IMG/VR virus record: IMGVR_UViG_2821954623_000003
From: an uncultured virus (IMG/VR IMGVR_UViG_2821954623_000003)
Lineage: Duplodnaviria; Heunggongvirae; Uroviricota; Caudoviricetes
Length of the DNA: 20,000 bases
Direction: 5' to 3' (one strand)
Positions 1-19,599 of this stretch are shown here, piece by piece (within the stretch, counting starts at the first letter, position 1; the number at the start of each line of letters is the position of its first letter). A program made the translations under genes and the position numbers. The notes beneath the pieces are model-generated. The model was not told the DNA's origin, did no database searches, and saw only the letters and a program-made list of their open reading frames with translations.

Positions 1-2278
1 GCAAGCAGGCAAGATTAGTGAGAAGTTAACAAGTGTAGAAAAGCAAGCAAATACTCTAACAAATAAAACAACTGAGATTGCAAAAAGTGTGGATGGAATC
101 AGAGAAACAGTAACAAAAGTAGAAAATAATCAGGGGGGATTTGATAAGCGTGTAACAGCAGTAGAGAAAAACGTTGAAGGTTTTTCTCAAAATGTTAGTA
201 AGTTACAAGAAACACAAACGGCACAAGGTAAACAGATTTTTGACGCTCAATCTACAATCAAACAACATTCTGACGCGCTTGATATGACCTTGAAAATGAA
301 AGATGTTGAGAACTATGTAGGCGGTCTTGGATCTATTAATGAGATTCGTGACGCTGGTTTTACTCAAGGGAATAAATACTGGGGTTGGGCTACTGGGCAC
401 TCTATAGATACTAACCTAAAGTACAAAGGATACAATTCATTTTCTATGCACACTACAGGACAAACCCAGGATGTATGGTGGGGTGCTTTTAGTCAATTTA
501 TAGATTGTTCTCCTAATGAAGATATTGTTATTTCTGCTTACGTTAACACTGATGGAAAAGTTCCTATTGATAATGGTGTATTTATCGAGATGGAGTTTTG
601 GCAATCGAATAAAACAACCCGAATTTCAACTGCTAGGGAAAGAGTTCAAATCATTACTAATACTTGGGTCAGGGCTATTTGTACAGCTAAAGCTCCGGCA
701 GGAACTGGATTTGTAAGGTTTCGACCATACGTACAAAGAAATGGTAGAGCTTGGTTCTCTATGCCTATGCTGCAGCGAGGTAAAGTCGCTACAGAATTTT
801 GGTTACATCCGAAAGATCAAACTGATGCTGATAAAATGATTGAAGATATTGCTAATAGAGTAGCTACTAAGGATTACGATAAAAAAGTAACAGAGTTAGA
901 AAGAAGTATCAGCGCTACTGAAAAAGGCGTTTCAATTATTAGTGGAAAACAAGAAACGTTTATAAATGAGACGTATAATGCCTATGTAAAGAAAACAGAA
1001 TCTAGGTTAGAAGTGTTAGATGAAGGGATTCTAGCACAGATTTTAAAGGATGGCATCATGACTTCTATCAATATGTCACCTGGTAAGATTACAATTGATG
1101 CCGAAAAACTGAATATTAATGCCGATACAATAGTTAAATGGCTAACAGCAAAAGGAATTGATGCTGATGTTATTAAAATCAGTGGTGATAAAGTAACAAT
1201 TGATAAGAATGGTATTACAGCAAAAATGGCTGACTTCTTTTTTGAAGATGAGCGTGGGCAGAAATTTTCAGTAACACCAAGGAAGAATCTCATTCCAGAT
1301 CATGACTTTTCACACATTTCTTTTAAGAATTTTAATAATTATTTTTTGAAGATTGAATACAGTCCTACATGGACAATTATGTCTAATCCATATATTGAGA
1401 AACCAGTGGTTAATAATTATGAGCCAATGGTTAATCCGTTGCGGATAGATTTAGGAAACTGGATTCGTTTTACATTATTTGATGGTGTAAAACCAGGTAA
1501 GAATTACACATTGTCGGCTCATTTCAGAGCAACTACCAATGATAATCGTGTAAACATTACAAACAAGCCAATCATGAGAGCGGTATTCGGTAAATATAAC
1601 GGTGACACTCCCGTGGAGCTTGGACGAGCATCAAAAACTTACGATGCACCAAGCATTCAAACTGGAAAAATAGTAAGATACGCTTTAACCTTCACTGTGC
1701 CGAGTAACTATGTAGAAGGAAATGGTTATGTTTATATTGATTTATTTGGCGAGGGGCTCTTAAATAATATGCAAGCAATTGCTGTATCAGGTGTTCAGTT
1801 GGTGGAAGGTGACGTTCCTTCCGTTTATAACTGGGATACAACACATGGAGAACTCGTAAACGGAACACTGCCTTTTTCTACAATTGCACTTGGTACAAGA
1901 GATAATACAATTCGGTACAATCATGTGAACAAATGGAACTATATGAATGCGCCACTTGAAATTATGAACAATGGTGAAATGATGGCACTCGTTGGAACTG
2001 ATCGTGCGGGACTTAGTTTTTATCCCCGTGGCGGTGGAGAACGTAGAAGTTACATCGGTCACATTTACAACAATGAAAATAGATTCCGAATTGAATCAAA
2101 AGATCCTGTTGCAACGACACAATCAATTGAATGTAATGGGATTAACGTATGTGGTGGATACTTTGGTGCTAATGCAGGTTCTATTCATTATACAAATGGT
2201 AGCTTAGGTTTAGGGTGGTATTTCCATGATGGTAGATGGAATTATGTTGATTTCACAAATATGACTTCTAGAACATAG
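1..2278 (+). CDS. Phage tail / minor structural protein, 5' partial (coiled coil, two carbohydrate-binding-like beta domains, C-terminal beta-rich tip)
   Basis: The frame of ORF 89..2278 is open back to position 2, so the true start lies outside the window. N-terminal heptad-like segment, 'INMSPGKITIDAEKLNI' segment typical of siphophage tail proteins, two CBM-like blocks ending PMLQRG and VQLVEG; located just upstream of the lysis genes. Confidence 0.85.
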   Translation, partial: QAGKISEKLTSVEKQANTLTNKTTEIAKSVDGIRETVTKVENNQGGFDKRVTAVEKNVEGFSQNVSKLQETQTAQGKQIFDAQSTIKQHSDALDMTLKMKDVENYVGGLGSINEIRDAGFTQGNKYWGWATGHSIDTNLKYKGYNSFSMHTTGQTQDVWWGAFSQFIDCSPNEDIVISAYVNTDGKVPIDNGVFIEMEFWQSNKTTRISTARERVQIITNTWVRAICTAKAPAGTGFVRFRPYVQRNGRAWFSMPMLQRGKVATEFWLHPKDQTDADKMIEDIANRVATKDYDKKVTELERSISATEKGVSIISGKQETFINETYNAYVKKTESRLEVLDEGILAQILKDGIMTSINMSPGKITIDAEKLNINADTIVKWLTAKGIDADVIKISGDKVTIDKNGITAKMADFFFEDERGQKFSVTPRKNLIPDHDFSHISFKNFNNYFLKIEYSPTWTIMSNPYIEKPVVNNYEPMVNPLRIDLGNWIRFTLFDGVKPGKNYTLSAHFRATTNDNRVNITNKPIMRAVFGKYNGDTPVELGRASKTYDAPSIQTGKIVRYALTFTVPSNYVEGNGYVYIDLFGEGLLNNMQAIAVSGVQLVEGDVPSVYNWDTTHGELVNGTLPFSTIALGTRDNTIRYNHVNKWNYMNAPLEIMNNGEMMALVGTDRAGLSFYPRGGGERRSYIGHIYNNENRFRIESKDPVATTQSIECNGINVCGGYFGANAGSIHYTNGSLGLGWYFHDGRWNYVDFTNMTSRT

Positions 2279-4446: not shown

Positions 4447-4872
4447 ATGGATCGTATTGATGTATTAATGAAAGCATTTATTGCTACATTTGGTGGCTTC
4501 TGTGGTTACTTTTTGGGAGGATGGGATGCTACATTGAAAATCTTAGTAATAATGGCAGTTATTGATTATTTAACTGGCATGATAGCAGCAGGATACAATG
4601 GAGAATTAAAAAGTAAAGTTGGTTTCAAAGGCATCGCCAAAAAGGTGGTGCTTTTTCTTTTGGTCGGCGCAGCCGCTCAATTAGATACAGCACTTGGAAG
4701 TAATAGTGCTATTCGGGAAGCGACAATCTTTTTCTTTATCGGAAATGAATTGCTTTCACTTTTAGAAAATGCAGGACGTATGGGAATACCTTTACCTTCA
4801 GCATTAACAAATGCAGTTGAAATTTTAGGTGGCAAACAAAAACAAGAAGAGAAAAAAGGAGATGTTGAATAG
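4447..4872 (+). CDS. Phage holin (toxin secretion/phage lysis holin family)
   Basis: Hydrophobic segments with DYLTGMIAA...LKSKVGFKGIAKK and NELLSLLENAGRMGIPLP motifs; stop overlaps endolysin start (TAGTG). Confidence 0.93.
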   Translation: MDRIDVLMKAFIATFGGFCGYFLGGWDATLKILVIMAVIDYLTGMIAAGYNGELKSKVGFKGIAKKVVLFLLVGAAAQLDTALGSNSAIREATIFFFIGNELLSLLENAGRMGIPLPSALTNAVEILGGKQKQEEKKGDVE

Positions 4873-5633
4873 TGGGTAAATATAGTTTGCATGGTGGTCA
4901 TACTGAATTTGTACAAGGAGCTAACTGTGGGAATCGAAAAGAACATATTATGGACCGTCAGGTAAAGGATGCAGTTGCAGTTAAGTTAAGAGCTTTAGGA
5001 CATACAGTTTATGATGATACGGACGAGGTTGGTAGAACTCAAGCGCAAAACTTAAATAACATCGTTCGCAACTGTAATTCTCATAGTGTGGACCTTGTAA
5101 TTTCATTTCACTTAAACGCATATAACGGAAATGCTAATGGAGTTGAGGTATGTTACTACGATCAGCAATCTTTGGCAGCAAAAGTATCAGCACAACTTGC
5201 AAAAGATATTGGTTGGTCTAATCGTGGTGCTAAAGAGCGTAAAGACCTTGCTGTACTTCGTGGAACTAAAGCACCAGCAATCCTAATCGAACTTGGATTC
5301 ATCGATAACGAGTCCGATATGGCTAAATGGGATGTAGATAAGATTGCTAATTCCATTGTATACGCATTGACTGGACAAACTGTTGGAGGTAGCCAACCAA
5401 CCGCACCAACTCCACCATTTAATCAAAAACGTAATGTTGTAGAGGCAGGAGGAATCGGTAGAGAAAATTTAGCTGATATAGTAGGAGCTTTAAATTCAGT
5501 TCACATGACGGGTAATTTAAACCTTAAAAGTGATGGGTACATTTATCCTGTAACTGATCCAACTAGCGACGCTCAATTAAAAGCATTCACTGACTATCTT
5601 GATCGCAAAGGCTGGGTATATACAGTTAAGTAA
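4872..5633 (+). CDS. Endolysin, N-acetylmuramoyl-L-alanine amidase (Amidase_3) with C-terminal cell-wall-binding domain
   Basis: Zn-amidase motifs HGGH..E, SFHLNA, ILIELGFIDN; Pro/Thr linker; PlyG/PlyL-like C-terminus (DAQLKAFTDYLDRKGW). Confidence 0.93.
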   Translation: MGKYSLHGGHTEFVQGANCGNRKEHIMDRQVKDAVAVKLRALGHTVYDDTDEVGRTQAQNLNNIVRNCNSHSVDLVISFHLNAYNGNANGVEVCYYDQQSLAAKVSAQLAKDIGWSNRGAKERKDLAVLRGTKAPAILIELGFIDNESDMAKWDVDKIANSIVYALTGQTVGGSQPTAPTPPFNQKRNVVEAGGIGRENLADIVGALNSVHMTGNLNLKSDGYIYPVTDPTSDAQLKAFTDYLDRKGWVYTVK

Positions 5634-6382: not shown

Positions 6383-6414
6383 ATAAGAGCCGTCCTGTTG
6401 GGCGGCTTGTTTTT
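6383..6414. terminator. Intrinsic terminator after yolD-like gene
   Basis: AGCCGTCC-TGTT-GGGCGGCT hairpin flanked by A/T runs. Confidence 0.7.
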
Positions 6415-6754
6415 ATTTTGCATCAATAATATCAATAAATTTCAACGTCATATTATTGTAAAATGCATCCGTACAAATTATAGATTTATTCAGCGGATCA
6501 ATATCAACAACGGTCATATAGTTAGTAAGTAAAAAACCACCTTCGTAATATGTAATCATTATTTCTTCTTCAGAAAGCAACGAACATAATAGCATGTTCT
6601 CAATCAGTTCTTGTTCATCTTGGGTTAATGTAGGGCGTTCTACTTTCGTCTTTTCTTTAACAATCTTACGGATACCAGCGAATTGCTCCGGCATCGCAGC
6701 GAACGGAGTCCATTTAACCATTCCTCTTCCTTTTGGCATATTAGCGTTGTTCAT
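6413..6754 (-). CDS. yolD: YolD-like family protein
   Basis: RGMVKWTPFAAMPEQ signature; start overlaps the stop of the Y-family polymerase. Confidence 0.88.
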   Translation of the reverse strand: MNNANMPKGRGMVKWTPFAAMPEQFAGIRKIVKEKTKVERPTLTQDEQELIENMLLCSLLSEEEIMITYYEGGFLLTNYMTVVDIDPLNKSIICTDAFYNNMTLKFIDIIDAK

Positions 6755-8016
6755 GCTTTATGTCCCCCTAACAATGTGTTTCTGTATCTTGCTGTTGCAC
6801 TATTTGTATACGAAATTCCTCGTAATATGCTGTTCTTACCAAATTTAGTGCGTATTTCGTCCATTACTTTAGTTAGTTTCAATTCTTTTTCTCTTTGTAT
6901 TACATTATCGAATAGTGAGATTTGTTCTTCGCCTTCATTGATTAAGTTAGTTAAAGAAACATTGATGGATCTAATGGGCTCCCCAGTATAAAACTCATGT
7001 AAAAAATATGTACAAATCTTATAAATATCCATTGTTAAATTAGTTGGTCGGTTCATAGTGTGAGTTTTTTTGAAACCACCAGAATAATTTTTGCTGTAAC
7101 CAATGGAAAAATGAATAGTTTGAGCTAGTTTGTTTTGTCTTCGCATTCGATAACAAACTTCTTCGATATGCTCTAGTAGAATAATTGGGAATTCCTCTAT
7201 TGTGTAATCACGCATTAGTATTTGGCTTTTACCAATAGAAGTTGTTGCTGGAACGTATTTTTCTGATATACGGCTAAAATCAATGCCGTTGCTATGTAAG
7301 TGTAGTTCTTCACCAATAACGCCAAAACTTTGTTTTAAGTATTTAAGCGGGTACTGCGCTAAGTCTCCGATTGAATGTATCCCCTTTCGGTTTAACTTCG
7401 CTTCTGTTTTACCTGAAATCCCCCAAAATTTATTAAGTGGTCGTATTGGCCATAATTTTATGGGTACATCTTCGTACTTCCAGTATGCTATGCAATCTTT
7501 CGTTTTCTTCGCTTCCACATCTAACGCTACTTTGCTCATTAAAGGATTAGGGCCAATTCCTATCGTGCATTCAATTCGTGTCTTCGCATATATTTCACGT
7601 TTAAATTTCAATGCGAAATCATATGGGTCGTTAGCAAACAAATGAATACTATCCGTAATATCCATAAAGAATTCATCAATGGAATATTGGTGGAAATCCT
7701 CAACAGGAACATATTGTAGAGCTAGTTTCGTGATGAAATTGGAGCATTTTATGTAAGTACTCATAATTGGATTCACCACGAGAACATCTTTACGACGAGG
7801 TATTTCATACAACCGTGCCATTTTCTTAACACCTAACGCTTTTAATGGTGGCGTTGCAGCCAAAACAATAGAACCACTCCTATTCACATCACCAACTACA
7901 GCTAATTTTGTATGAAGCGGGTCTAATCCCATCTTGATACAACTGACTGAAGCATAAAAGCTACGAAGATCTACACATAAAACAATTCGGTTTGGCAATA
8001 TTGAATAGTCATACAC
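6751..8016 (-). CDS. Y-family (UmuC/UvrX-like) translesion DNA polymerase
   Basis: CVDLRSFYASV, YSIDEFFMD, GIGPNPLMSKVALD motifs; QISLF clamp-binding motif; GTG start with RBS TAGGGGG. Confidence 0.95.
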   Translation of the reverse strand: MYDYSILPNRIVLCVDLRSFYASVSCIKMGLDPLHTKLAVVGDVNRSGSIVLAATPPLKALGVKKMARLYEIPRRKDVLVVNPIMSTYIKCSNFITKLALQYVPVEDFHQYSIDEFFMDITDSIHLFANDPYDFALKFKREIYAKTRIECTIGIGPNPLMSKVALDVEAKKTKDCIAYWKYEDVPIKLWPIRPLNKFWGISGKTEAKLNRKGIHSIGDLAQYPLKYLKQSFGVIGEELHLHSNGIDFSRISEKYVPATTSIGKSQILMRDYTIEEFPIILLEHIEEVCYRMRRQNKLAQTIHFSIGYSKNYSGGFKKTHTMNRPTNLTMDIYKICTYFLHEFYTGEPIRSINVSLTNLINEGEEQISLFDNVIQREKELKLTKVMDEIRTKFGKNSILRGISYTNSATARYRNTLLGGHKA

Positions 8017-8073: not shown

Positions 8074-8139
8074 TTTATGAAGAGGTTTTTTCAAAAAAAT
8101 AATCAGCCCGAATTTATTGAGCTGATTATTACTAAATTA

Positions 8140-8427
8140 TTAGCCATTAATTGACCATCCGCCATATGGTGGATAATATCCAACTGAACCCCATCCTCCG
8201 TAGGGAAATCCGCTACTTGAAGTCCAACTTCCATATGGTAAGAAACCACCTGAAGTCCAGCCCCCATATGGCGATACAACCATACCACCACCTGTAGTCC
8301 AACCTCCTGTATAAAATTGCTGTGGTGGTAAAAAACCACTAGAACCACTACCATGACCACCATGACTCATAAAATCTCTAGGTGAAATTGAATTGTAAAT
8401 TCCTGTAGAACAATAATAAGAATTCAT
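8140..8427 (-). CDS. Small Gly/Ser/Tyr/Trp-rich repeat protein (95 aa), function unknown
   Basis: Strong RBS AAGGAGGG before ATG 8427; five motifs YTGGW, PYGGW, PYGSW, PYGGW, PYGGW. Confidence 0.65.
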   Translation of the reverse strand: MNSYYCSTGIYNSISPRDFMSHGGHGSGSSGFLPPQQFYTGGWTTGGGMVVSPYGGWTSGGFLPYGSWTSSSGFPYGGWGSVGYYPPYGGWSING

Positions 8428-9046: not shown

Positions 9047-10348
9047 TTGAATTTGATGTTTGAGTTAGTAAGTTCAGCAACAGTGGGTGGTGTAATTCTT
9101 TTCGCGAAAATGCATCAAAAAGGGGCTACTACCGATGCTTCTAAGATTCAAAGGATTTGCGCGAATTGCGGTTTGAAAGTGAAAGAAGGTAAAGAAACCA
9201 GGACTATACAGTTACTCCGTAAGACGAGAAATGAGTGGGGAATAGAGTATGCGTATAGAATTCCGCTTGGCCTTAGTTTCTCTGATTTCGAACAAAAGAT
9301 ACAGCATTTAGAAGATGGGCTAAATCACAAGAGCAAAGTTTATGATTTCAAACTACAAGACTTCAAATCTCTTCGACTGCAAAAAGATATCTTGAAACAA
9401 ATACAAAACATCATAAACAAGAAAAAACTCGTTAGAAAGGAAATTGAGCTGTCTTACGACGGTTTGCTAAAAATAAGAGTTTACGAGAAAGGGATTCCTG
9501 ATTTTGTGAAGTTTGAAGATGACATGATGAAGAAATGTAAAGGATGGGAAGTACCTATTGGTTATACAAGGGATGGATTAGTAAAACACGACTTTGATCA
9601 GTTATCGCACATGATATCAGCCGGTATGACGGACATGGGGAAATCGAATGTATTAAAACTCATTATTACAGCTCTGGTACGAAACCAATCAGACAATATA
9701 AAGCTATTCCTTATCGATTTGAAGGGTGGTCTCTCTTTCAACCGATACAGATTCCTAAATCAAGTCGAATCAATTGCGAAGAATCCCGAGGAAGCCCTTG
9801 AGACTCTAAGGGAATTGCAAGATAAACTGAATGCTAGAAACGAATACTTACTAGAAAAAGGATATGAAGATATAAAAGAAGCCGGGGATCCAACTAGATA
9901 CTTTGTCATTGTAGATGAAGCAGCCGACATGACGCCATATCAGGAGTGCAAGGACATCGTTGTTGATATAGGTCGTCGTGGCAGGGCAGCGGGATTCCGC
10001 TTGGTATATGCGACACAATACCCTACTAACGAAGCATTACCATCGCAGTTACGACAAAACATTGGGGCCCGTGTTTGCTTTAGATTACAGACAGAAGCAG
10101 GGAGCCGTGCTGTGCTAGACGAGGGCGGCGCAGAGAGTCTTCCCAACATAAAAGGAAGGGCTATATACCAAACAAATGAGAAGAAGGTCTTACAGACTGT
10201 TTATCTCGATAACAAGCAGATTGATAACATCATAAAACCACACATCAATATCAGAGCGAGAAAGGAGCATGAAAATGCAAAAGTTAGCAATGAAGGAAGC
10301 GCGAACGGAAAGTATACTCTTGAGCTTGAAGAAACTCGGCTTTCTTAG
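9047..10348 (+). CDS. FtsK/SpoIIIE-domain ATPase
   Basis: Walker A AGMTDMGKS, LIDLKGG, Walker B FVIVDEAA, GRAAGFRLVYATQYP; N-terminal hydrophobic segment. Confidence 0.92.
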   Translation: MNLMFELVSSATVGGVILFAKMHQKGATTDASKIQRICANCGLKVKEGKETRTIQLLRKTRNEWGIEYAYRIPLGLSFSDFEQKIQHLEDGLNHKSKVYDFKLQDFKSLRLQKDILKQIQNIINKKKLVRKEIELSYDGLLKIRVYEKGIPDFVKFEDDMMKKCKGWEVPIGYTRDGLVKHDFDQLSHMISAGMTDMGKSNVLKLIITALVRNQSDNIKLFLIDLKGGLSFNRYRFLNQVESIAKNPEEALETLRELQDKLNARNEYLLEKGYEDIKEAGDPTRYFVIVDEAADMTPYQECKDIVVDIGRRGRAAGFRLVYATQYPTNEALPSQLRQNIGARVCFRLQTEAGSRAVLDEGGAESLPNIKGRAIYQTNEKKVLQTVYLDNKQIDNIIKPHINIRARKEHENAKVSNEGSANGKYTLELEETRLS

Positions 10349-10865
10349 TAGAAAGCAAATTCAGGTACTTCATGATCTTGGCGGTGACAGGAATGCTTCT
10401 CGTGTAATGAAGGGTATTGAAGAATATGTGTCTAGTTTTAGGGATGGAGAAAAGGTTTATTATCTCAACAAGGAAGGGCGTGAACGTATTGGGAGCAAGA
10501 AAATACTCAAACGTTCGAATCAATTTCGCCATTATATTATGAGAAATGACATCTACATTGCTTATGAATGCCCGAAAACGTGGAAGCAAGAAGTAAAGAT
10601 GAATGTGAAAGGTATCGTTTCTATAATTGCGGATGCGTTATTTACGGATAATGGACGCTATCACATTGTAGAGGTGGATCATGAGCAAAAAATGAGTGCA
10701 AACCGTATCAAGATGCAGAAGTATAGAAAGTTAATGGAATGCAATGTGTTTGAGAAGCCACCCAAGTTTATTTGGTACACCACGACAGAATATAGAAGAA
10801 AACAACTTCAGAAGCTTTGCGAGGGATTGGATTGCAACATATTTACGGTTACTGATTTTCATTAA
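10269..10865 (+). CDS. Replication-relaxation (Replic_Relax-type) protein
   Basis: N-terminal winged-helix-like part (LSRKQIQVLH...YYLNKEG), H.IMRND, and PD-(D/E)xK-like IADA...IVEVD; overlaps the FtsK gene. Confidence 0.8.
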   Translation: MKMQKLAMKEARTESILLSLKKLGFLSRKQIQVLHDLGGDRNASRVMKGIEEYVSSFRDGEKVYYLNKEGRERIGSKKILKRSNQFRHYIMRNDIYIAYECPKTWKQEVKMNVKGIVSIIADALFTDNGRYHIVEVDHEQKMSANRIKMQKYRKLMECNVFEKPPKFIWYTTTEYRRKQLQKLCEGLDCNIFTVTDFH

Positions 10866-13859: not shown

Positions 13860-14240
13860 TTAAATTTCGGTTAAGAGCTTGAATTTCCTTTTCTGATCAG
13901 GTGTTAGCTCATTTTCTACATAACGATCTATAAGCAGGTCGATAATTTCATAATTGAATTTTGTGTTTGTAAGTTTCATTAATACTTCAAGTTCTTCTTT
14001 TGATTGATTAGAAATTTTAATGCTACCTTGCTGGTTTTTAAATTTCTTTTTCGGTTCAGTTTTCTCGATCCTTTTCTCTTTTCGAGTAGTTGTTTTTTCT
14101 TCTATCTTAGGTTGAGAAGGAGTAACTGTAGCTGCTACCTCTTTATTTTCCGTCGTAGCTTGTCCTTGTTCCGGTACATAAGGCTCAGTAGGTTCAAAGT
14201 TACTTTTCTTTCGACCTAACAAACCAGGAGTTCTTGCCAT
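13860..14240 (-). CDS. Type Ib partition centromere-binding protein (ParB/ParG-like, RHH)
   Basis: ATG 14240 directly after the parA stop; disordered N-terminus; C-terminal GSIKISNQSKEELEVL...EIIDLLIDRYV. Confidence 0.75.
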   Translation of the reverse strand: MARTPGLLGRKKSNFEPTEPYVPEQGQATTENKEVAATVTPSQPKIEEKTTTRKEKRIEKTEPKKKFKNQQGSIKISNQSKEELEVLMKLTNTKFNYEIIDLLIDRYVENELTPDQKRKFKLLTEI

Positions 14241-14241
14241 A

Positions 14242-15063
14242 TTACACACCAACCTTCATTTTTTCAAACATATCAACACGAGATAATAATTCATCACTAA
14301 TCGTTTCGTATAGTTCAATTACATTCATATCATGTCTATCTTTTTCAGTAATACCATTCACATCAAATCGTTTAATACGTTCCATTTGAGGGACGATGTT
14401 TTTAAATAGGTTTTCTTCTCCAAATATTTCACGAGCATTTTCCATGATGTATTCGTCAACTTTACCGTTGTTTTTTAATAGGACAGGAAGAACGCCAACT
14501 ACTTCAATATCAAGATCATATTGCTCTTTTAACTTGATAAGTTCATTAATATAATTCTCGGCACCAGTAAGAGAACGTTCTTGTGTTTGGAGAGCAATTA
14601 GAACATAATCAGAAGCTACAACTGCATTTTTTGTAACTTCTAGTGACATAGGAGGTACGTCGATAAATATGTAGTCGTATTTATGCTTTATCTTTTCAAG
14701 TAATCCTTTAAAGTAATGATCTTCTTCAGCCTCCGAAGAACAATTTTTATAAAGGAATTTTGCGAAGTCCTGAAAATCAACGTAAGAAGGAAGTAAATGT
14801 AAGTTCTCCATAATTTCCACTTCTAAGCCGTCTAGGTTTCCCTCTTGTATTCCTTTCATTAATGTTTTTTCAACAGTAACAATTTCATCAGGATTAAGGA
14901 TTGATTTTGTTAACATTAAAGACTTGGTTGCGTTACTTTGTGGATCAAGGTCAACAAGTAATGTACGCTTGCCCTTTTTAGCGAATTCATAAGAGTTCAA
15001 TACAGCATTCGTGGTCTTACCGACTCCACCTTTGTAATTACCTACCGTAATTGTAATAGCCAT
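14242..15063 (-). CDS. parA: ParA/Soj-family partition ATPase
   Basis: Deviant Walker A KGGVGKTT, LLVDLDPQSNAT, DYIFIDVPP; no N-terminal HTH (type Ib); ATG 15063 after GGAG. Confidence 0.95.
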   Translation of the reverse strand: MAITITVGNYKGGVGKTTNAVLNSYEFAKKGKRTLLVDLDPQSNATKSLMLTKSILNPDEIVTVEKTLMKGIQEGNLDGLEVEIMENLHLLPSYVDFQDFAKFLYKNCSSEAEEDHYFKGLLEKIKHKYDYIFIDVPPMSLEVTKNAVVASDYVLIALQTQERSLTGAENYINELIKLKEQYDLDIEVVGVLPVLLKNNGKVDEYIMENAREIFGEENLFKNIVPQMERIKRFDVNGITEKDRHDMNVIELYETISDELLSRVDMFEKMKVGV

Positions 15064-15094
15064 TTTTAACACTCCAGTTATTTATTTTTAAAAT

Positions 15095-15437
15095 TTCCCT
15101 ATATCCCTTTATAGAAATAGGGAAAAATAGAAATAGGGAAAAAGGGATATTTCTAACTATAGAAATAGGGATATTTCTATATCTTTAAAGAAATTATAAC
15201 AATGATGTACGGTATATGCAATAGAATCATAGAGTTAGTAATTAATAATAAAAACGTTGATATCATAAGATTCTTTTGATGTATGAAGTAGAGGGAGTTA
15301 AGAAATAAATATGTAATTTCGTAGAGATGTTAGTAGATGCAAAAATAACGAAAATAGGGAAATATAGATATAGGGAAAAGGGGAAATATCCCTATATCTA
15401 TAAGTGGAAATAGGGAAATAGGGAAATAGGGATATTT
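15095..15437. repeat. Centromere-like (parS/parC) repeat clusters upstream of parA
   Basis: Two clusters (~15095-15183 and ~15351-15437) of AAATAGGG / ATAGGGATATTTC, including tandem GGAAATAG x3 (15406-15429) and the inverted repeat ATAGATATAGGGA...TCCCTATATCTAT (15364-15401). Confidence 0.8.
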
Positions 15438-15581
15438 TGAAAAAAGTGCGTAATCCAGCAGTTTACAAAGGATAAAGCTTGTTGTAACGTAGTACACAAC
15501 AAGCATCATTCTACAAAACAAAACATAATTTGATATTTTATATAAACGAAGATCGATAAAACAATTGAATATGAACAGAAA

Positions 15582-15757
15582 ATAAAAAAGCCACTCCCAT
15601 ATGCTATCGGCTACCAACCTTTAGCGGGAATGACTCAGTTCTAGTAATTGCTACCAACACTTACTAGATATAACCTGTAACCAAGCAGGACTTCGGTTTA
15701 AGTAGTGCACCAACACTATCCTTAAACAATTATGCCTTTCGACTAGGCTTATTTGAT
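15582..15757 (-). ncRNA. Antisense (RNA I-like) copy-control RNA, ~175 nt
   Basis: Minus-strand sigma-A promoter TTGAAT(15792-15787)-N17-TAAAAT(15769-15764); hairpins with UUGGU loops; last hairpin AGTCATTCCC...GGGAGTGGCT followed by TTTTT acts as terminator. Confidence 0.7.
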
Positions 15758-15841
15758 ATACCCATTTTATCTGTGATTGGACTAAAATTCAACTAGTAAA
15801 TACTAGATTTGATTATTTTGTAGTCTAAAAGATATATACCG

Positions 15842-15911
15842 GGCATCTCTAAACCTAGAAGTCTTGTGATGTACAGGCCATTTAGGAATTAGAGATGCCT
15901 TTTTGTTTTTT
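15842..15911 (+). terminator. Terminator/attenuator-like hairpin inside the non-coding region
   Basis: GGCATCTCTAA (15842-15852) pairs with TTAGAGATGCC (15889-15899), inner CCTA/TAGG, then TTTTTGTTTTTT. Confidence 0.65.
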
Positions 15912-16822
15912 GTTCGCGTGGAATTGCCTGATACCACGTAAATAAAAACTGATAAGCCGTAATTCCGTGCTGCTATACATATAGGGGGAACGTGTTACGG
16001 CGTGGCTAGCTGTTGGTCGTGCAGGGGGTACTGAGTTATACGCCTACAAAAACAGCACCCCTCATTGGATTCCTGTTCATCTGGTGAGGGAGGGCGAGAA
16101 CTTGCCCAGGGACGATTCTCTAAAAGGTTCGGGTGGTTATCGTTAGCATTACGGTGCTAGGGAGTACATTCAGTTTGTCGTGTAGGGACGATATTACAAG
16201 GACAAGCCATAGAAAAAGGGTGTATGCGATGAAGATCGCTGAGTGAACAGGGTCTATACATACGGATACCATATAAGTGACCGCATGGCGAAAACAAAGA
16301 CGCTTATCCATCTATTTTGACTGATTACTTTTTTTGCAGTCATTCAAAGTAGGGGATAAATCTGCCTTCCAGCCGTGTTCCATAATCACTCCCACATGAT
16401 AAAAACCTTCAAGACCTTCAGTCAACATTAAATTCGAAGAAATGATGAAAAATGTGAGGTTGTTTAAGACTTGGAGGAACTACTCGCTAAGATAGAGGAA
16501 TAAATAAGGGATTTACCACTTACTTGGTTAAAGGATAAAGGGACGGATGATTAAAATATGTCCTATTGCAAAATTTGGTTTTACATATCGGATATAGTAC
16601 GTGAAATTAAACTTATATAATTTTAGTTTGATTGGTATATGGTGATATTCTAGCAGTTGATGAAAAAGCACGTTGAGAAGTGATGAAGTAAACAGAAAAA
16701 ATATTGTTAGAAGATGTAGTGGTTAACCTCAGTAAACAAAAATTAACTTTTATTGTATATTTTGAAAATAGATATTAATTAAGGTAATCTTAATTTAAAC
16801 TACTAAGGGGAGGGATATCATT

Positions 16823-17764
16823 GTGAAAGTATTTAAATTAACTACAGAAAGTCATGCTCTTTTAGATTTGAATGAACAGAGCTGGGAAACTACTATTGCT
16901 TATTATGAGAAGGAAACTCATAAGAGAGCGCCCTATTATTGTGATCTAAAAAAGAAAACCAGATATTTTGCTGTTTGTCCTGGTTGTAATAATCCGGTTC
17001 AATTAGTAAATTTGTATGTTAATAAGAAATTACCAGACAACGAAAAGAAGCAATCCCCACATGCTAAACATCAACCGCATTCAGTTATTGGAATAGCAAC
17101 TTATTATCAAGAAAAGTACGATACCTGTGAATTGAGACAGAGAACACCCTTCAGTGATACTGAGAAAAGAACTGGAACGGATGTACCAAATGAAATATTG
17201 CAGCTCATACAACGATATCCAGACATCTTATATAAACATATACGAAAAATAATAGGTATCAATTTTTCTAGACGCGTATTTGAGCGCATGATTGATAATT
17301 TTCTTCGTGCAAATGGACATTGTTATAAGCGTATTAATAAATTTAATTTGCCGTATGCTTTTCTATATATGCAAAAAAGTACAAGAATTATTAATCAACA
17401 TATTACAGAAGGTCATGCTTATCAAAAAGAAATAATTGATTGTATACAAAATAGTAAATATTTTACTGTATCTGATAATAAAATTACACCTATTAACCCG
17501 AAGGTTGATGGGTTTGTAGAAATTGATTTTTACTTAACAAAACATAAAATTACACCAATTAAAAATATGATTACTCTCTGTATTACTGAATCTAAGGGAG
17601 GGGAAGTTGATAGTTTATTAGAAAAGGAATTTCCAGTAAATGAATCTGATTATATAAATGATATCAACGAGGCGATGGACAATGGGGATAATGAAATGGA
17701 TAGTAATAAAGCTAGATCTCAATTGAGAGAGATGGTACTCAATTGCATTGAAAAAAATAATTGA
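16823..17764 (+). CDS. Hypothetical protein (313 aa) with N-terminal Cys/His motif
   Basis: Own sigma-A promoter TTGAAA(16762)-N17-TAATCT, RBS GGGGAGGG, GTG start; CPGC...HAKH...C possible Zn ligands. Confidence 0.75.
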   Translation: MKVFKLTTESHALLDLNEQSWETTIAYYEKETHKRAPYYCDLKKKTRYFAVCPGCNNPVQLVNLYVNKKLPDNEKKQSPHAKHQPHSVIGIATYYQEKYDTCELRQRTPFSDTEKRTGTDVPNEILQLIQRYPDILYKHIRKIIGINFSRRVFERMIDNFLRANGHCYKRINKFNLPYAFLYMQKSTRIINQHITEGHAYQKEIIDCIQNSKYFTVSDNKITPINPKVDGFVEIDFYLTKHKITPIKNMITLCITESKGGEVDSLLEKEFPVNESDYINDINEAMDNGDNEMDSNKARSQLREMVLNCIEKNN

Positions 17765-18844: not shown

Positions 18845-19239
18845 GAAAAAGACATCATAAGGGAATTACAAGCCGATATTATTGTTTTAGACAACGAAAC
18901 TCTGTTTGATAGTCATAAATTTCGTGAGATGGGAAGATTAATGGAAGACCAATTTTTATCTTTATTATCCTACGTTGCGGATCAAGAGCGTAAAAAATTT
19001 CGGAAAAGACAAGCGGAAGGGATTGTGGTGGCCAAAGCTCAAGGAAAACATTTAGGGCGCCCTCCACTTAACCTTTCAACATTAAGCCCAAAGCAACTAT
19101 TTATAATAGACGAAACCTATTCAAAGTGGAAAAAAGAGAAATAACGAGCATTAAATTTATGGAACTACTAGAACTTAAGAAAAATACTTTTTATAAGATA
19201 CTAAAAGAATATGAAGAGAACAACTTACAACCTAAATAA
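18845..19239 (+). pseudogene. Serine recombinase (resolvase) remnant
   Basis: RELQADIIVLDNETLFDS...LLSYVADQERKK..RQAEGI..AKAQGKHLGRP; catalytic N-terminus missing (in-frame TGA at 18830); frameshift near 19135 before the HTH tail ITSIKFMELLELKKNTFYKILKEYE. Confidence 0.85.
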
Positions 19240-19524: not shown

Positions 19525-19599
19525 AAATATTGCAATATGATAAAATATGCAATATTGCATATTTTATCATATTGCAATATTTCTGAAATTTAATATAAT
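19525..19599 (+). promoter_or_regulatory. PlcR box inside a 58-bp perfect palindrome, overlapping a sigma-A promoter
   Basis: TATGCAATATTGCATA (19546-19561) matches TATGNAN4TNCATA; palindrome spans 19525-19582; TTGCAA(19572)-N16-TATAAT(19594). Confidence 0.75.

Follow-up and report, generated by a model that had tools for sequence, protein, structure and literature searches.

Since the 1990s Rep-less theta replicons of Bacillus, exemplified by pLS20 and pHT1030, have been recognized as functional fragments, and a mechanism for them is lacking. The pHT1030 replicon, ori1030, is the source of the pHT304 and pHT315 vectors, and Lereclus and Arantes reportedly delimited it in 1992, within this 15-kb plasmid, as a minimal replicon of 1 kb that is free of open reading frames (ORFs) and depends on host factors. 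The hosts of pLS20 are of the B. subtilis group, and we know of no description of RNA or antisense anatomy in its origin, oripLS20. As far as the relevant sections of the published accounts go, oripLS20 is a stretch of ~1.1 kb beside alp7AR with no typical replication gene (PMC8557374), the segment is the experimentally delimited replication module of a "class E" theta replicon (Meijer 1995; PMC8557374, PMC9743546), and very little is known of how its replication starts (PMC8557374). We analyzed a window of 20,000 nucleotides (nt) of the uncultured virus record IMGVR_UViG_2821954623_000003 (IMG/VR), which by family search of its gene content is part of a siphovirus-like B. cereus-group phage-plasmid and which carries, between parA and the gene at 16823-17764, a non-coding region comparable to these replicons. 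For such phage-plasmids, the section of a survey devoted to the matter names only ParA, an RHH protein, and Replic_Relax as related to plasmid replication (PMC8026635). A literature search, in which subscription journals were thinly covered, returned no description of RNAs or structure in this region.

The stretch from 15,530 to 16,610 contains no conserved ORF. Within 15,330-16,800 there are just two ORFs of at least 50 amino acids (aa), 15330-15617(-) and 16120-16311(-); a Pfam search gave no family for either, and the 63-aa frame is unbroken in no more than 12 of 37 representative homologues, so that the view of the initial annotation of this DNA, that no credible ORF lies beside parA, is borne out. 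What the region carries is a 5' domain of hairpins covered by a counter-oriented transcription unit (module A), a long terminator-like hairpin (T1), and a large folded RNA (module B), the coordinates of which are collected in Table 1. This stretch is probably the plasmid-state replicon of the element, a theta replicon that is centred on RNA, does without Rep, and is of the pLS20/pHT1030 kind.

For the sense RNA there is a candidate promoter that the promoter scan of the window did not list; the aligned site reads TTGATT-17/18-TAAAAT in small plasmids and TTGCCA-17-TAGAAT in the diverged small plasmid L011, and similarity to distant relatives starts at 15568. The A-run and the four hairpins with ACCAA in their loops, which had been described in the initial annotation, were recovered, and both folding and covariation support them. 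The sense strand of 15566-15912 (347 nt) folds at -94.8 kcal/mol, against -65.4 +/- 5.1 kcal/mol for shuffled sequences (z = -5.7; 0 of 100 shuffles equal). When the hairpins of module A and T1 were drawn by hand on 59 aligned relatives, 93.8% of cells paired, with 20 compensatory pairs compared to 6.1 +/- 1.6 after shuffling (0 of 500) and 4 to 11 in slid controls. Hairpin h2 is missing from pLM5, pIS56-15, and the 7.5-kb plasmids.

The counter-oriented promoter and terminator previously placed over these hairpins were likewise upheld. The promoter scan, which overall returned sites at the chance level (6, against 8.6 +/- 3.0 expected), found TTGAAT-17-TAAAAT at 15792-15764, and all 59 relatives examined retain this antisense promoter, with a -35 element of TTGATA, TTGAAT, or TTGAAA, a -10 element of TAAAAT in 54, and a 17-nt spacer in 56. 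The predicted antisense terminator was not listed by the simple scan; the A-run that supplies its U-run is kept in relatives. No Rfam countertranscript family matched in the region. The same order of parts, namely promoter, A-run with hairpin, more hairpins, TTCAACTAG promoter box, T1, and module B, was found in five diverged small plasmids, four of which have the TTCAACTAG box (L011 is without it).

The loops of module A occur as discrete alleles that recombine, and the loop words differ by plasmid (TCTCA in L001, TTGCACC in L010, and TTCGCACC in L011). Within one plasmid a single loop word tends to be repeated, as CTACCAA, AACCAA, and CACCAA are in the window (15611-15713) and as CTACCAA is, twice, in ColE1. 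A YUNR U-turn, considered as an explanation of the ACCAA loops, suits some loop alleles and not others. Loci were gathered by a conserved gapped pattern (78 viral and 23 metagenome loci), and at 96% identity 95 full copies fall into 57 module-A types versus 33 module-B types, from which we infer that the control cassette evolves faster than module B.

T1, which on predicted folding looks like an intrinsic terminator or attenuator between modules A and B, covaries, with GGGCATCTCTAA/TTAGAGATGCC replaced by GGGCGTTTTCTAT/ATAGAGAACGCCC in relatives. Beyond it, module B constitutes a sizeable structured RNA family that is new to Rfam: no family matched it in a scan of the 20 kb, in a focused scan, or in scans of six relatives. 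RNAalifold on 37 sequences gave 14 helices with 106 pairs, of which 43 are compensatory (15.5 +/- 2.4 in shuffles, 0 of 500; 5 to 14 in slid controls, over which the fold is favoured by having been predicted on the same alignment used for counting), and 98.6% of cells pair. The plus strand folds at -98.2 kcal/mol and the minus strand at -49.5 kcal/mol, many G-U pairs are invariant, consistent with this preference for the plus strand, and the single-sequence fold has a z of -3.4. Module B also stands out in composition, with 45% GC versus 35% for the window and 11 G-runs versus 3 C-runs. Contigs from RNA (metatranscriptome) libraries cover 15907-16439 (X6) and, over 282 nt, ~15556-15840 (X1), and long contigs from X8 and X12 run across everything; they give a weak hint of transcription of the region, since assembled contigs carry neither strand, ends, nor expression level and the parts left uncovered are uninformative.

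For comparison with pLS20, oripLS20 was taken from NZ_CP041370.1 (L259), which has a 100% match to it in a published supplement; its 921-bp core is identical with NC_015148.1 64668-65588. Both oripLS20 and the region of the window are non-coding (~1.1-1.4 kb in pLS20), lie beside partition genes, contain no replication gene, and show in the same order A-run hairpins, a long hairpin with a T-run, and a GC-rich folded RNA. Inspection by eye of the gap between alp7A and rap revealed a pair of A-run hairpins, one long hairpin with a T-run, a stretch of 53-56% GC in which lies a GCGCA-CUACGG-UGCG hairpin (compare H8), GGACAAGC...AAAAAGG, a GAAA hairpin, another long hairpin whose loop is U-rich (compare H14), and AAAGTCAAGAGA. 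The core features shared with module B are a hairpin with a YUACGG loop, a long-range helix built around GGACAAGC...AAAAAGG, a hairpin of the GAAA type, the long hairpin with its U-rich loop, and, towards the 3' end, AAAGTCAAG. Seven oripLS20-family sequences yielded 161 predicted pairs; compensatory change affects 42, compared with 15.6 +/- 2.9 in shuffles (0 of 500) and 3 to 14 in slid controls, here too with the fold predicted on the alignment that was scored; 97.3% of cells pair, and the strand preference is weaker (-154 versus -119 kcal/mol). In layout the rep-less module of pLS20, itself a large covarying RNA, agrees with that of the window.

A covariance model of the module B core (R1, 135 positions) finds diverged Bacillales copies at E-values of 1e-38 to 5e-15. 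In five of six oripLS20-family loci its best match lies at the homologous place and on the homologous strand (E = 4.5e-4, 1.2e-3, 0.031, 0.067, and 0.37; in the sixth it lies elsewhere), and on pLS20 itself it matches the origin at E = 0.18 over 83.6 kb, values which are marginal and, after a short calibration, rough. Homology between the module B core and oripLS20 is in our estimate an even proposition or better, short of proof. A second weak R1 match in the pLS20-like plasmid, at L259 651-778 (NZ_CP041370.1 50651-50778; 16.6 bits, E = 0.013), has a small gene on either side and is far from the origin. Further pLS20-family plasmids were sought by way of the divergent element L256 and the ParM-like protein it encodes, and none came of this; B. 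subtilis pPMO031_2 has an ordinary rep gene.

The connection to pHT1030 runs through pIS56-15 of B. thuringiensis (15,185 bp, with Tn4430), which, from its size and Tn4430, we take to be probably pHT1030. Module A matches it at 67% over 374 bp (E = 1e-21). The block is identical in a Bt407 plasmid, and its conserved non-coding length, 1,006 bp, agrees with the ~1 kb reported for the pHT1030 replicon. In plasmids of this type module B is replaced by a conserved, apparently structured module of ~600 nt (B2), whose hairpins covary (CCC-GAAA-GGG becomes GCT-GAAA-AGC and CTC-GAAA-GAG). Neither nhmmer nor R1 detected module B in the B2 plasmids, and B2 shares with module B only a 3' element, AGGGGA.AAGTCTG...AAGTCAAG.GATTT. 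A skipping-rope RNA (RF02924, 65.7 bits) occurs at 8132-8243 of pIS56-15 (L002), ~560 bp downstream of B2.

A BLAST search of plasmids found a non-coding block of ~1.17 kb in 125 records. Its identity is 85-97% in over 75 plasmids of the B. cereus group that measure 33-233 kb (among them pALH1, pBClin29-type, pBWB404, and pE33L54-size plasmids), and 7-15-kb plasmids as well as a Planococcus plasmid contain parts of it; among the matches listed, 59 of 60 have no annotated gene under the region and the remaining record is unannotated. Module A (15568-15923) is common to pIS56-15-type plasmids and L012, and module B (~15898-16425) to plasmids of 7.3-7.7 kb. Module B was found in 11 of 401 sampled genomes of Bacillales species, with A followed by B on four of these contigs; in the parts inspected of these four plasmid-like contigs from other species, there was no canonical Rep. 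A scan of genome contigs with a 15-base pattern gave chance matches only, and the four Bacillaceae genomes behind them held no real match. In every context seen, the region adjoins partition genes, in the position of rep, and the gene on its opposite side varies; at only 4 of the 117 loci does a 313-aa gene come next.

On the model that we favour, transcription from the sense promoter that continues past T1 would make a folded RNA in cis, and this RNA, with host proteins only, would open or prime the adjacent AT-rich DNA. The countertranscript would pair with the 5' hairpins and lower productive read-through or RNA stability, thereby setting copy number and incompatibility, a role that would explain the faster evolution of module A. 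Replic_Relax and the early-region genes elsewhere would then serve lytic phage replication. Similarity among large plasmids extends to about 16608-16611, and 16431-16611 is the candidate site of DNA unwinding or of the start of synthesis. The cumulative GC skew of pBWB404 tracks gene orientation and is uninformative on the origin. In pT181 and pIP501/pAMbeta1, an antisense RNA acts against a leader that is followed by an intrinsic terminator upstream of an essential replication function, the rep ORF; the region resembles these systems in the succession of antisense target, terminator, and replication function, the last being here a folded RNA and not a rep ORF.

A number of observations weigh against this model. 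Unlike in pT181 and pIP501, no alternative anti-terminator pairing was found: a thermodynamic search for a conserved anti-terminator in 57 relatives gave none, and the mean probability of T1 is 0.84 when free and 0.94 with the antisense target masked. One candidate that visual inspection suggested, between 15689-15702 and 15850-15865, does not persist in the major allele. A promoter-like site on the minus strand, P3, which points into the 3' part of module B, is conserved and is not accounted for by the model (in relatives, -35 TTGACT in 33 of 37, -10 TATCAT in 33 of 37, and an 18-nt spacer in 36 of 37; in the B2 variant, TTGACT-18-CATACT or TTGACT-17-TACACT). Its conservation may partly reflect constraint on the RNA, because P3 overlaps the 3' arm of H2, and the site may give a second countertranscript. 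Whereas pLS20 has a perfect DnaA box (TGTGGATAA), none (TTATCCACA, at most one mismatch) was found in 15500-16650; a scan of the whole window returned 7 matches, which is the chance level. Direct similarity to oripLS20 was absent by nhmmer. The rough E-values of R1, the scoring of folds on their own alignments, and the restriction of the RNA-library evidence to contigs add to these points, as do several genes that resemble initiators. In pLM5 a RepA_N protein (1.6e-8) abuts the region, in pIS56-15 a 346-aa DnaD/RepA_N-like protein does so (PHROG 8e-12; Pfam RepA_N below the cut-off), weak DnaD_N/HTH_36 proteins lie near it in L003, where the gene abuts, and in L011, and the window's own Replic_Relax protein is a "replication initiation protein" in PHROGs.

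These genes form the case for the alternative that survives best, namely, that the region is a cis-acting origin with a copy-control cassette in need of a plasmid or phage initiator (Replic_Relax, a RepA_N/DnaD-like protein, or an unrecognised small protein), with RNAs that only regulate. Replic_Relax is also found on contig L255, a 165-199-aa gene of no known function lies beside the region in L001, L003, L010, L012, and L013, and in replicons of the pAD1/pCF10 type a RepA_N gene holds the position of the region relative to prgP/prgO-like genes. However, no protein is common to all carriers, and the initiator-like neighbours belong to different families and lie on different sides. TBLASTX of seven small plasmids against pBWB404 and the window gave 244 high-scoring segment pairs (HSPs), 234 of them in this region and the remaining 10 in an apparent recombinase remnant of the window; pBWB404, a phage-plasmid of ~52 kb, shares only the RNA region with them. 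Pfam Rep families were absent from the 49 annotated proteins of L001, L003, L011, L012, and L013, and replication families of PHROGs and NCBIfam from the scanned proteins of L001, L010, L012, L013, and L254. For the adjoining protein of ~166 aa, the sole hint is a weak one to a PrgO partition adaptor (E = 0.0036), a match that falls short of the cut-off. A 510-nt fold under strong selection far exceeds the needs of known copy-control RNAs, and oripLS20, in the pertinent part of its description, functions without a replication gene (PMC8557374). We read the initiator-like neighbours, Replic_Relax, and the early genes (in pBWB404, two early-region genes of a kind usual in lytic phage replication) as serving accessory or lytic roles. 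Dependence on an initiator is in our judgment unlikely, and we retain it as an alternative because initiator-like genes exist.

Large structured RNAs of no known role are common on mobile elements, and module B might be one with a function other than replication, in regulation, anti-defence, or support of partition, that travels with plasmid backbones. At the end of the pLS20 RNA region there is a terminator-like hairpin, such as would close a free-standing RNA gene, and no such hairpin was seen in the window. A copy of the central domain of module B lies at 1529-1659(-) of L249 (G188:C1:1180480-1183575), ~1.18 Mb into a large, apparently chromosomal contig (R1, E = 3.7e-9), and may represent either an element that has integrated or a relative of the RNA that stands by itself. 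Under such an explanation, however, the small carriers would have no replicon; the region holds the position of rep beside partition genes in every context seen, and the putatively homologous pLS20 segment is, as the relevant passages have it, an experimentally delimited replication module (PMC8557374, PMC9743546). We consider a role outside replication improbable.

The initial annotation had proposed a ColE1-like Rep-independent replicon, and it was supported in regarding this as unusual for a phage-plasmid of Firmicutes. Like the RNA II-RNA I system of ColE1/pMB1 (class B theta), the region has no plasmid Rep gene, has a countertranscript over several 5' hairpins of a long sense RNA that ends near the sense start, and has an A-run before the first hairpin; the 7-nt loop word CTACCAA, present twice, is identical to loops I and II of ColE1 RNA II. 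The ColE1 words cited there, these two loops included, are real in NC_001371.1, and the motifs quoted from the window, AGGGGGAACG (15983-92), TCGTGCAGGGGG (16017-28), and GCCTACAAAAAC (16042-53), are present and resemble AGGGGGAAACG and CGTCAGGGGGG...GCCTATGGAAAAAC of ColE1. The excess of G-runs over C-runs in module B also agrees with a ColE1 model. In contrast to ColE1, the region has T1 in its path, a larger folded RNA, G-tract motifs that are not conserved, and a Gram-positive host.

In the relatives, GCAGGGGGTAC is replaced by GCGAGAGGTAC, GCGGAAAGTAC, or GCAGAGAGTAC, and CAAAAAC by CAAGAAC, CAAGGAT, or CAAAGGG. The GGGGG at 16024-28 becomes GAGAG, GAAAG, or AGAGA and pairs with ACGCC, GCGTCT, or GCTTTT in helix H4, and AAAAAC, which varies, pairs in H3, so that the G-tract and AAAAAC are arms of the covarying helices H3/H4; a lack of conservation of these motifs is a result that the initial annotation had itself named as refuting its proposal. 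AGGGGGAACG lies inside the 15955-16002 insertion, which the aligned rows of four small-plasmid-type sequences (L001, L010, L013, and L217) are without. The Rfam model of RNAI (RF00106), which recognises ColE1 at 73.8 bits, had no match in the window, whether the search covered 20 kb at E <= 1 or 921 bases at E <= 10. Local alignment to ColE1 scored 21 against 19.7 +/- 2.2 for shuffles, 87 of 300 of which were as high, and is not significant. Collinear global alignment is mildly above block shuffles for the window (z = 2.55, 5 of 300 as high) and inconsistent across five other family members (z = 1.85, -1.17, 2.29, 0.66, and 1.49), and homology to ColE1 was not detectable by the RNAI model or by local and global alignment. 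A true ColE1/pMB1-type replicon, with an RNA II-like transcript of ~480 nt from ~15,570, an R-loop through the G-tracts, an RNase H cut at ~16,048-53, extension by DNA polymerase I (Pol I), and an RNA I-like inhibitor, is very improbable, because these motifs are not conserved, AGGGGGAACG sits in an optional insert, the RNAI search was null, the alignment is not significant, and T1 stands between; moreover, the conserved RNA continues 370 nt past the proposed cut site.

The start by RNase H and Pol I that had been assigned to 16048-53 therefore falls. The identity of CTACCAA with ColE1 is a feature of one subfamily, since other members use their own loop words, and as far as sequence comparison reaches, the resemblance to ColE1 is one of logic, not of descent. 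Of the initial proposal there remains a rep-gene-less replication module under antisense control, which is very probable and follows a ColE1-like logic; kinship with ColE1 does not. Dependence of the region on Pol I or RNase H is doubtful, and by analogy with pLS20 Pol I dependence seems unlikely, as replicons of the pLS20 type, the nearest tested relatives, are stated in the section concerned to have been established in a Pol I mutant (PMC9743546).

[quoted passage not shown] Such an initiator would go beyond ColE1, where the RNA is the primer precursor only, and would account for two replicons unexplained for 30 years. New here are the anatomy (an antisense cassette in A, a terminator-like gate in T1, and a large covarying RNA in B) and its probable tie to pLS20 and pHT1030, together with a likely plasmid-state replicon for a large group of B. 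cereus-group phage-plasmids. For the pHT-series vectors, which are widely used, the anatomy has a bearing on copy number and incompatibility, and it also matters to schemes that type plasmids by rep genes alone.

Table 1. Features of the window, in nucleotide positions of its 20,000-nt sequence
Feature	Position	Strand	Basis or remark
Tail fibre gene			Present in window; family search
Holin	4447-4872		Family search
PlyG-type amidase	4872-5633		Family search
YolD/UmuC	6413-8016		Family search
FtsK-like	9047-10348		Family search
Replic_Relax	10269-10865		Family search; PHROGs label, replication initiation protein
Small ParB-like gene	13860-14252		Family search
ParA (PrgP-like)	14242-15072	-	Pfam AAA_31 2e-39; NCBIfam PrgP 3e-52
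ATAGGGAAA-type iterons, two clusters	15093-15176 and 15338-15445		Upstream of parA, flanking parA promoter region; repeat family D1, 6 copies
Candidate sense promoter	15530-15565	+	-35 TTGATA 15530-35; weak -10 near 15553-60; predicted start ~15566
Sense RNA 5' domain, countertranscript target	15566-15757	+	Fold z and covariation
h1	15592-15632	+	Loop CTACCAA 15611-17
h2	15641-15667	+	Loop CTACCAA 15651-57
h3	15674-15689	+	Loop AACCAA
h4	15696-15727	+	Loop CACCAA 15708-13
h5	15734-15748	+	Part of sense RNA 5' domain
Countertranscript unit	15580-15792	-	-35 15792-87; -10 15769-64; predicted RNA ~180 nt, ~15757 to terminator (predicted ends)
Antisense terminator	Hairpin 1 and U-run (complement of A-run 15580-89)	-	A-run kept in relatives
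T1	15842-15912	+	Long hairpin; 11-bp basal stem 15842-52/15889-99, then TTTTTGTTTTTTG
Module B, ~510-nt structured RNA	15916-16424	+	RNAalifold, covariation, strand asymmetry
H1	15916-21/15934-39	+	Module B helix
Optional insert hairpin	15955-16002	+	Module B
H2, closing helix	16003-07/16420-24	+	Module B
H3	16009-14/16051-56	+	Module B helix
H4	16020-30/16039-48	+	Module B helix
H5	16059-70/16079-90	+	Module B helix
H6	16092-99/16361-67	+	Module B helix
H7	16127-31/16244-48	+	Module B helix
H8	16141-49/16154-62	+	Module B helix
H9	16164-71/16218-25	+	Module B helix
H10-11	16173-85/16194-207	+	Module B helices
H12	16226-30/16235-39	+	Module B helix
H13	16249-54/16299-304	+	Module B helix
H14	16305-27/16337-58	+	Module B helix
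P3, promoter-like site	16396-16425	-	TTGACT-18-TATCAT; promoter scan
AT-rich DNA	16431-16611		31% GC; conserved in large plasmids just beyond the RNA

The closest record to the window is an IMG/VR provirus of 37.7 kb, and the closest plasmid is one of B. toyonensis, with 97.3% identity across the region. ParA and the small ParB directly adjoin the non-coding region. The ATAGGGAAA-type iterons are probably the centromere or operator of the PrgP/PrgO-like ParA partition system; they adjoin the replicon and do not belong to it. Downstream, 18938-19215 gave 10 TBLASTX HSPs with serine recombinases from the small plasmids, all confined to the C-terminal part of these proteins, and looks, from this match, like the remnant of a resolvase gene. 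A translesion-repair pair of YolD and UmuC/UvrX is present both in the window and in the pLS20-like plasmid L259 (3840-5451). At 19525-19582 there is a perfect palindrome of 58 nt with 17% GC, which drew spurious matches to microRNA families on both strands in the Rfam scan.

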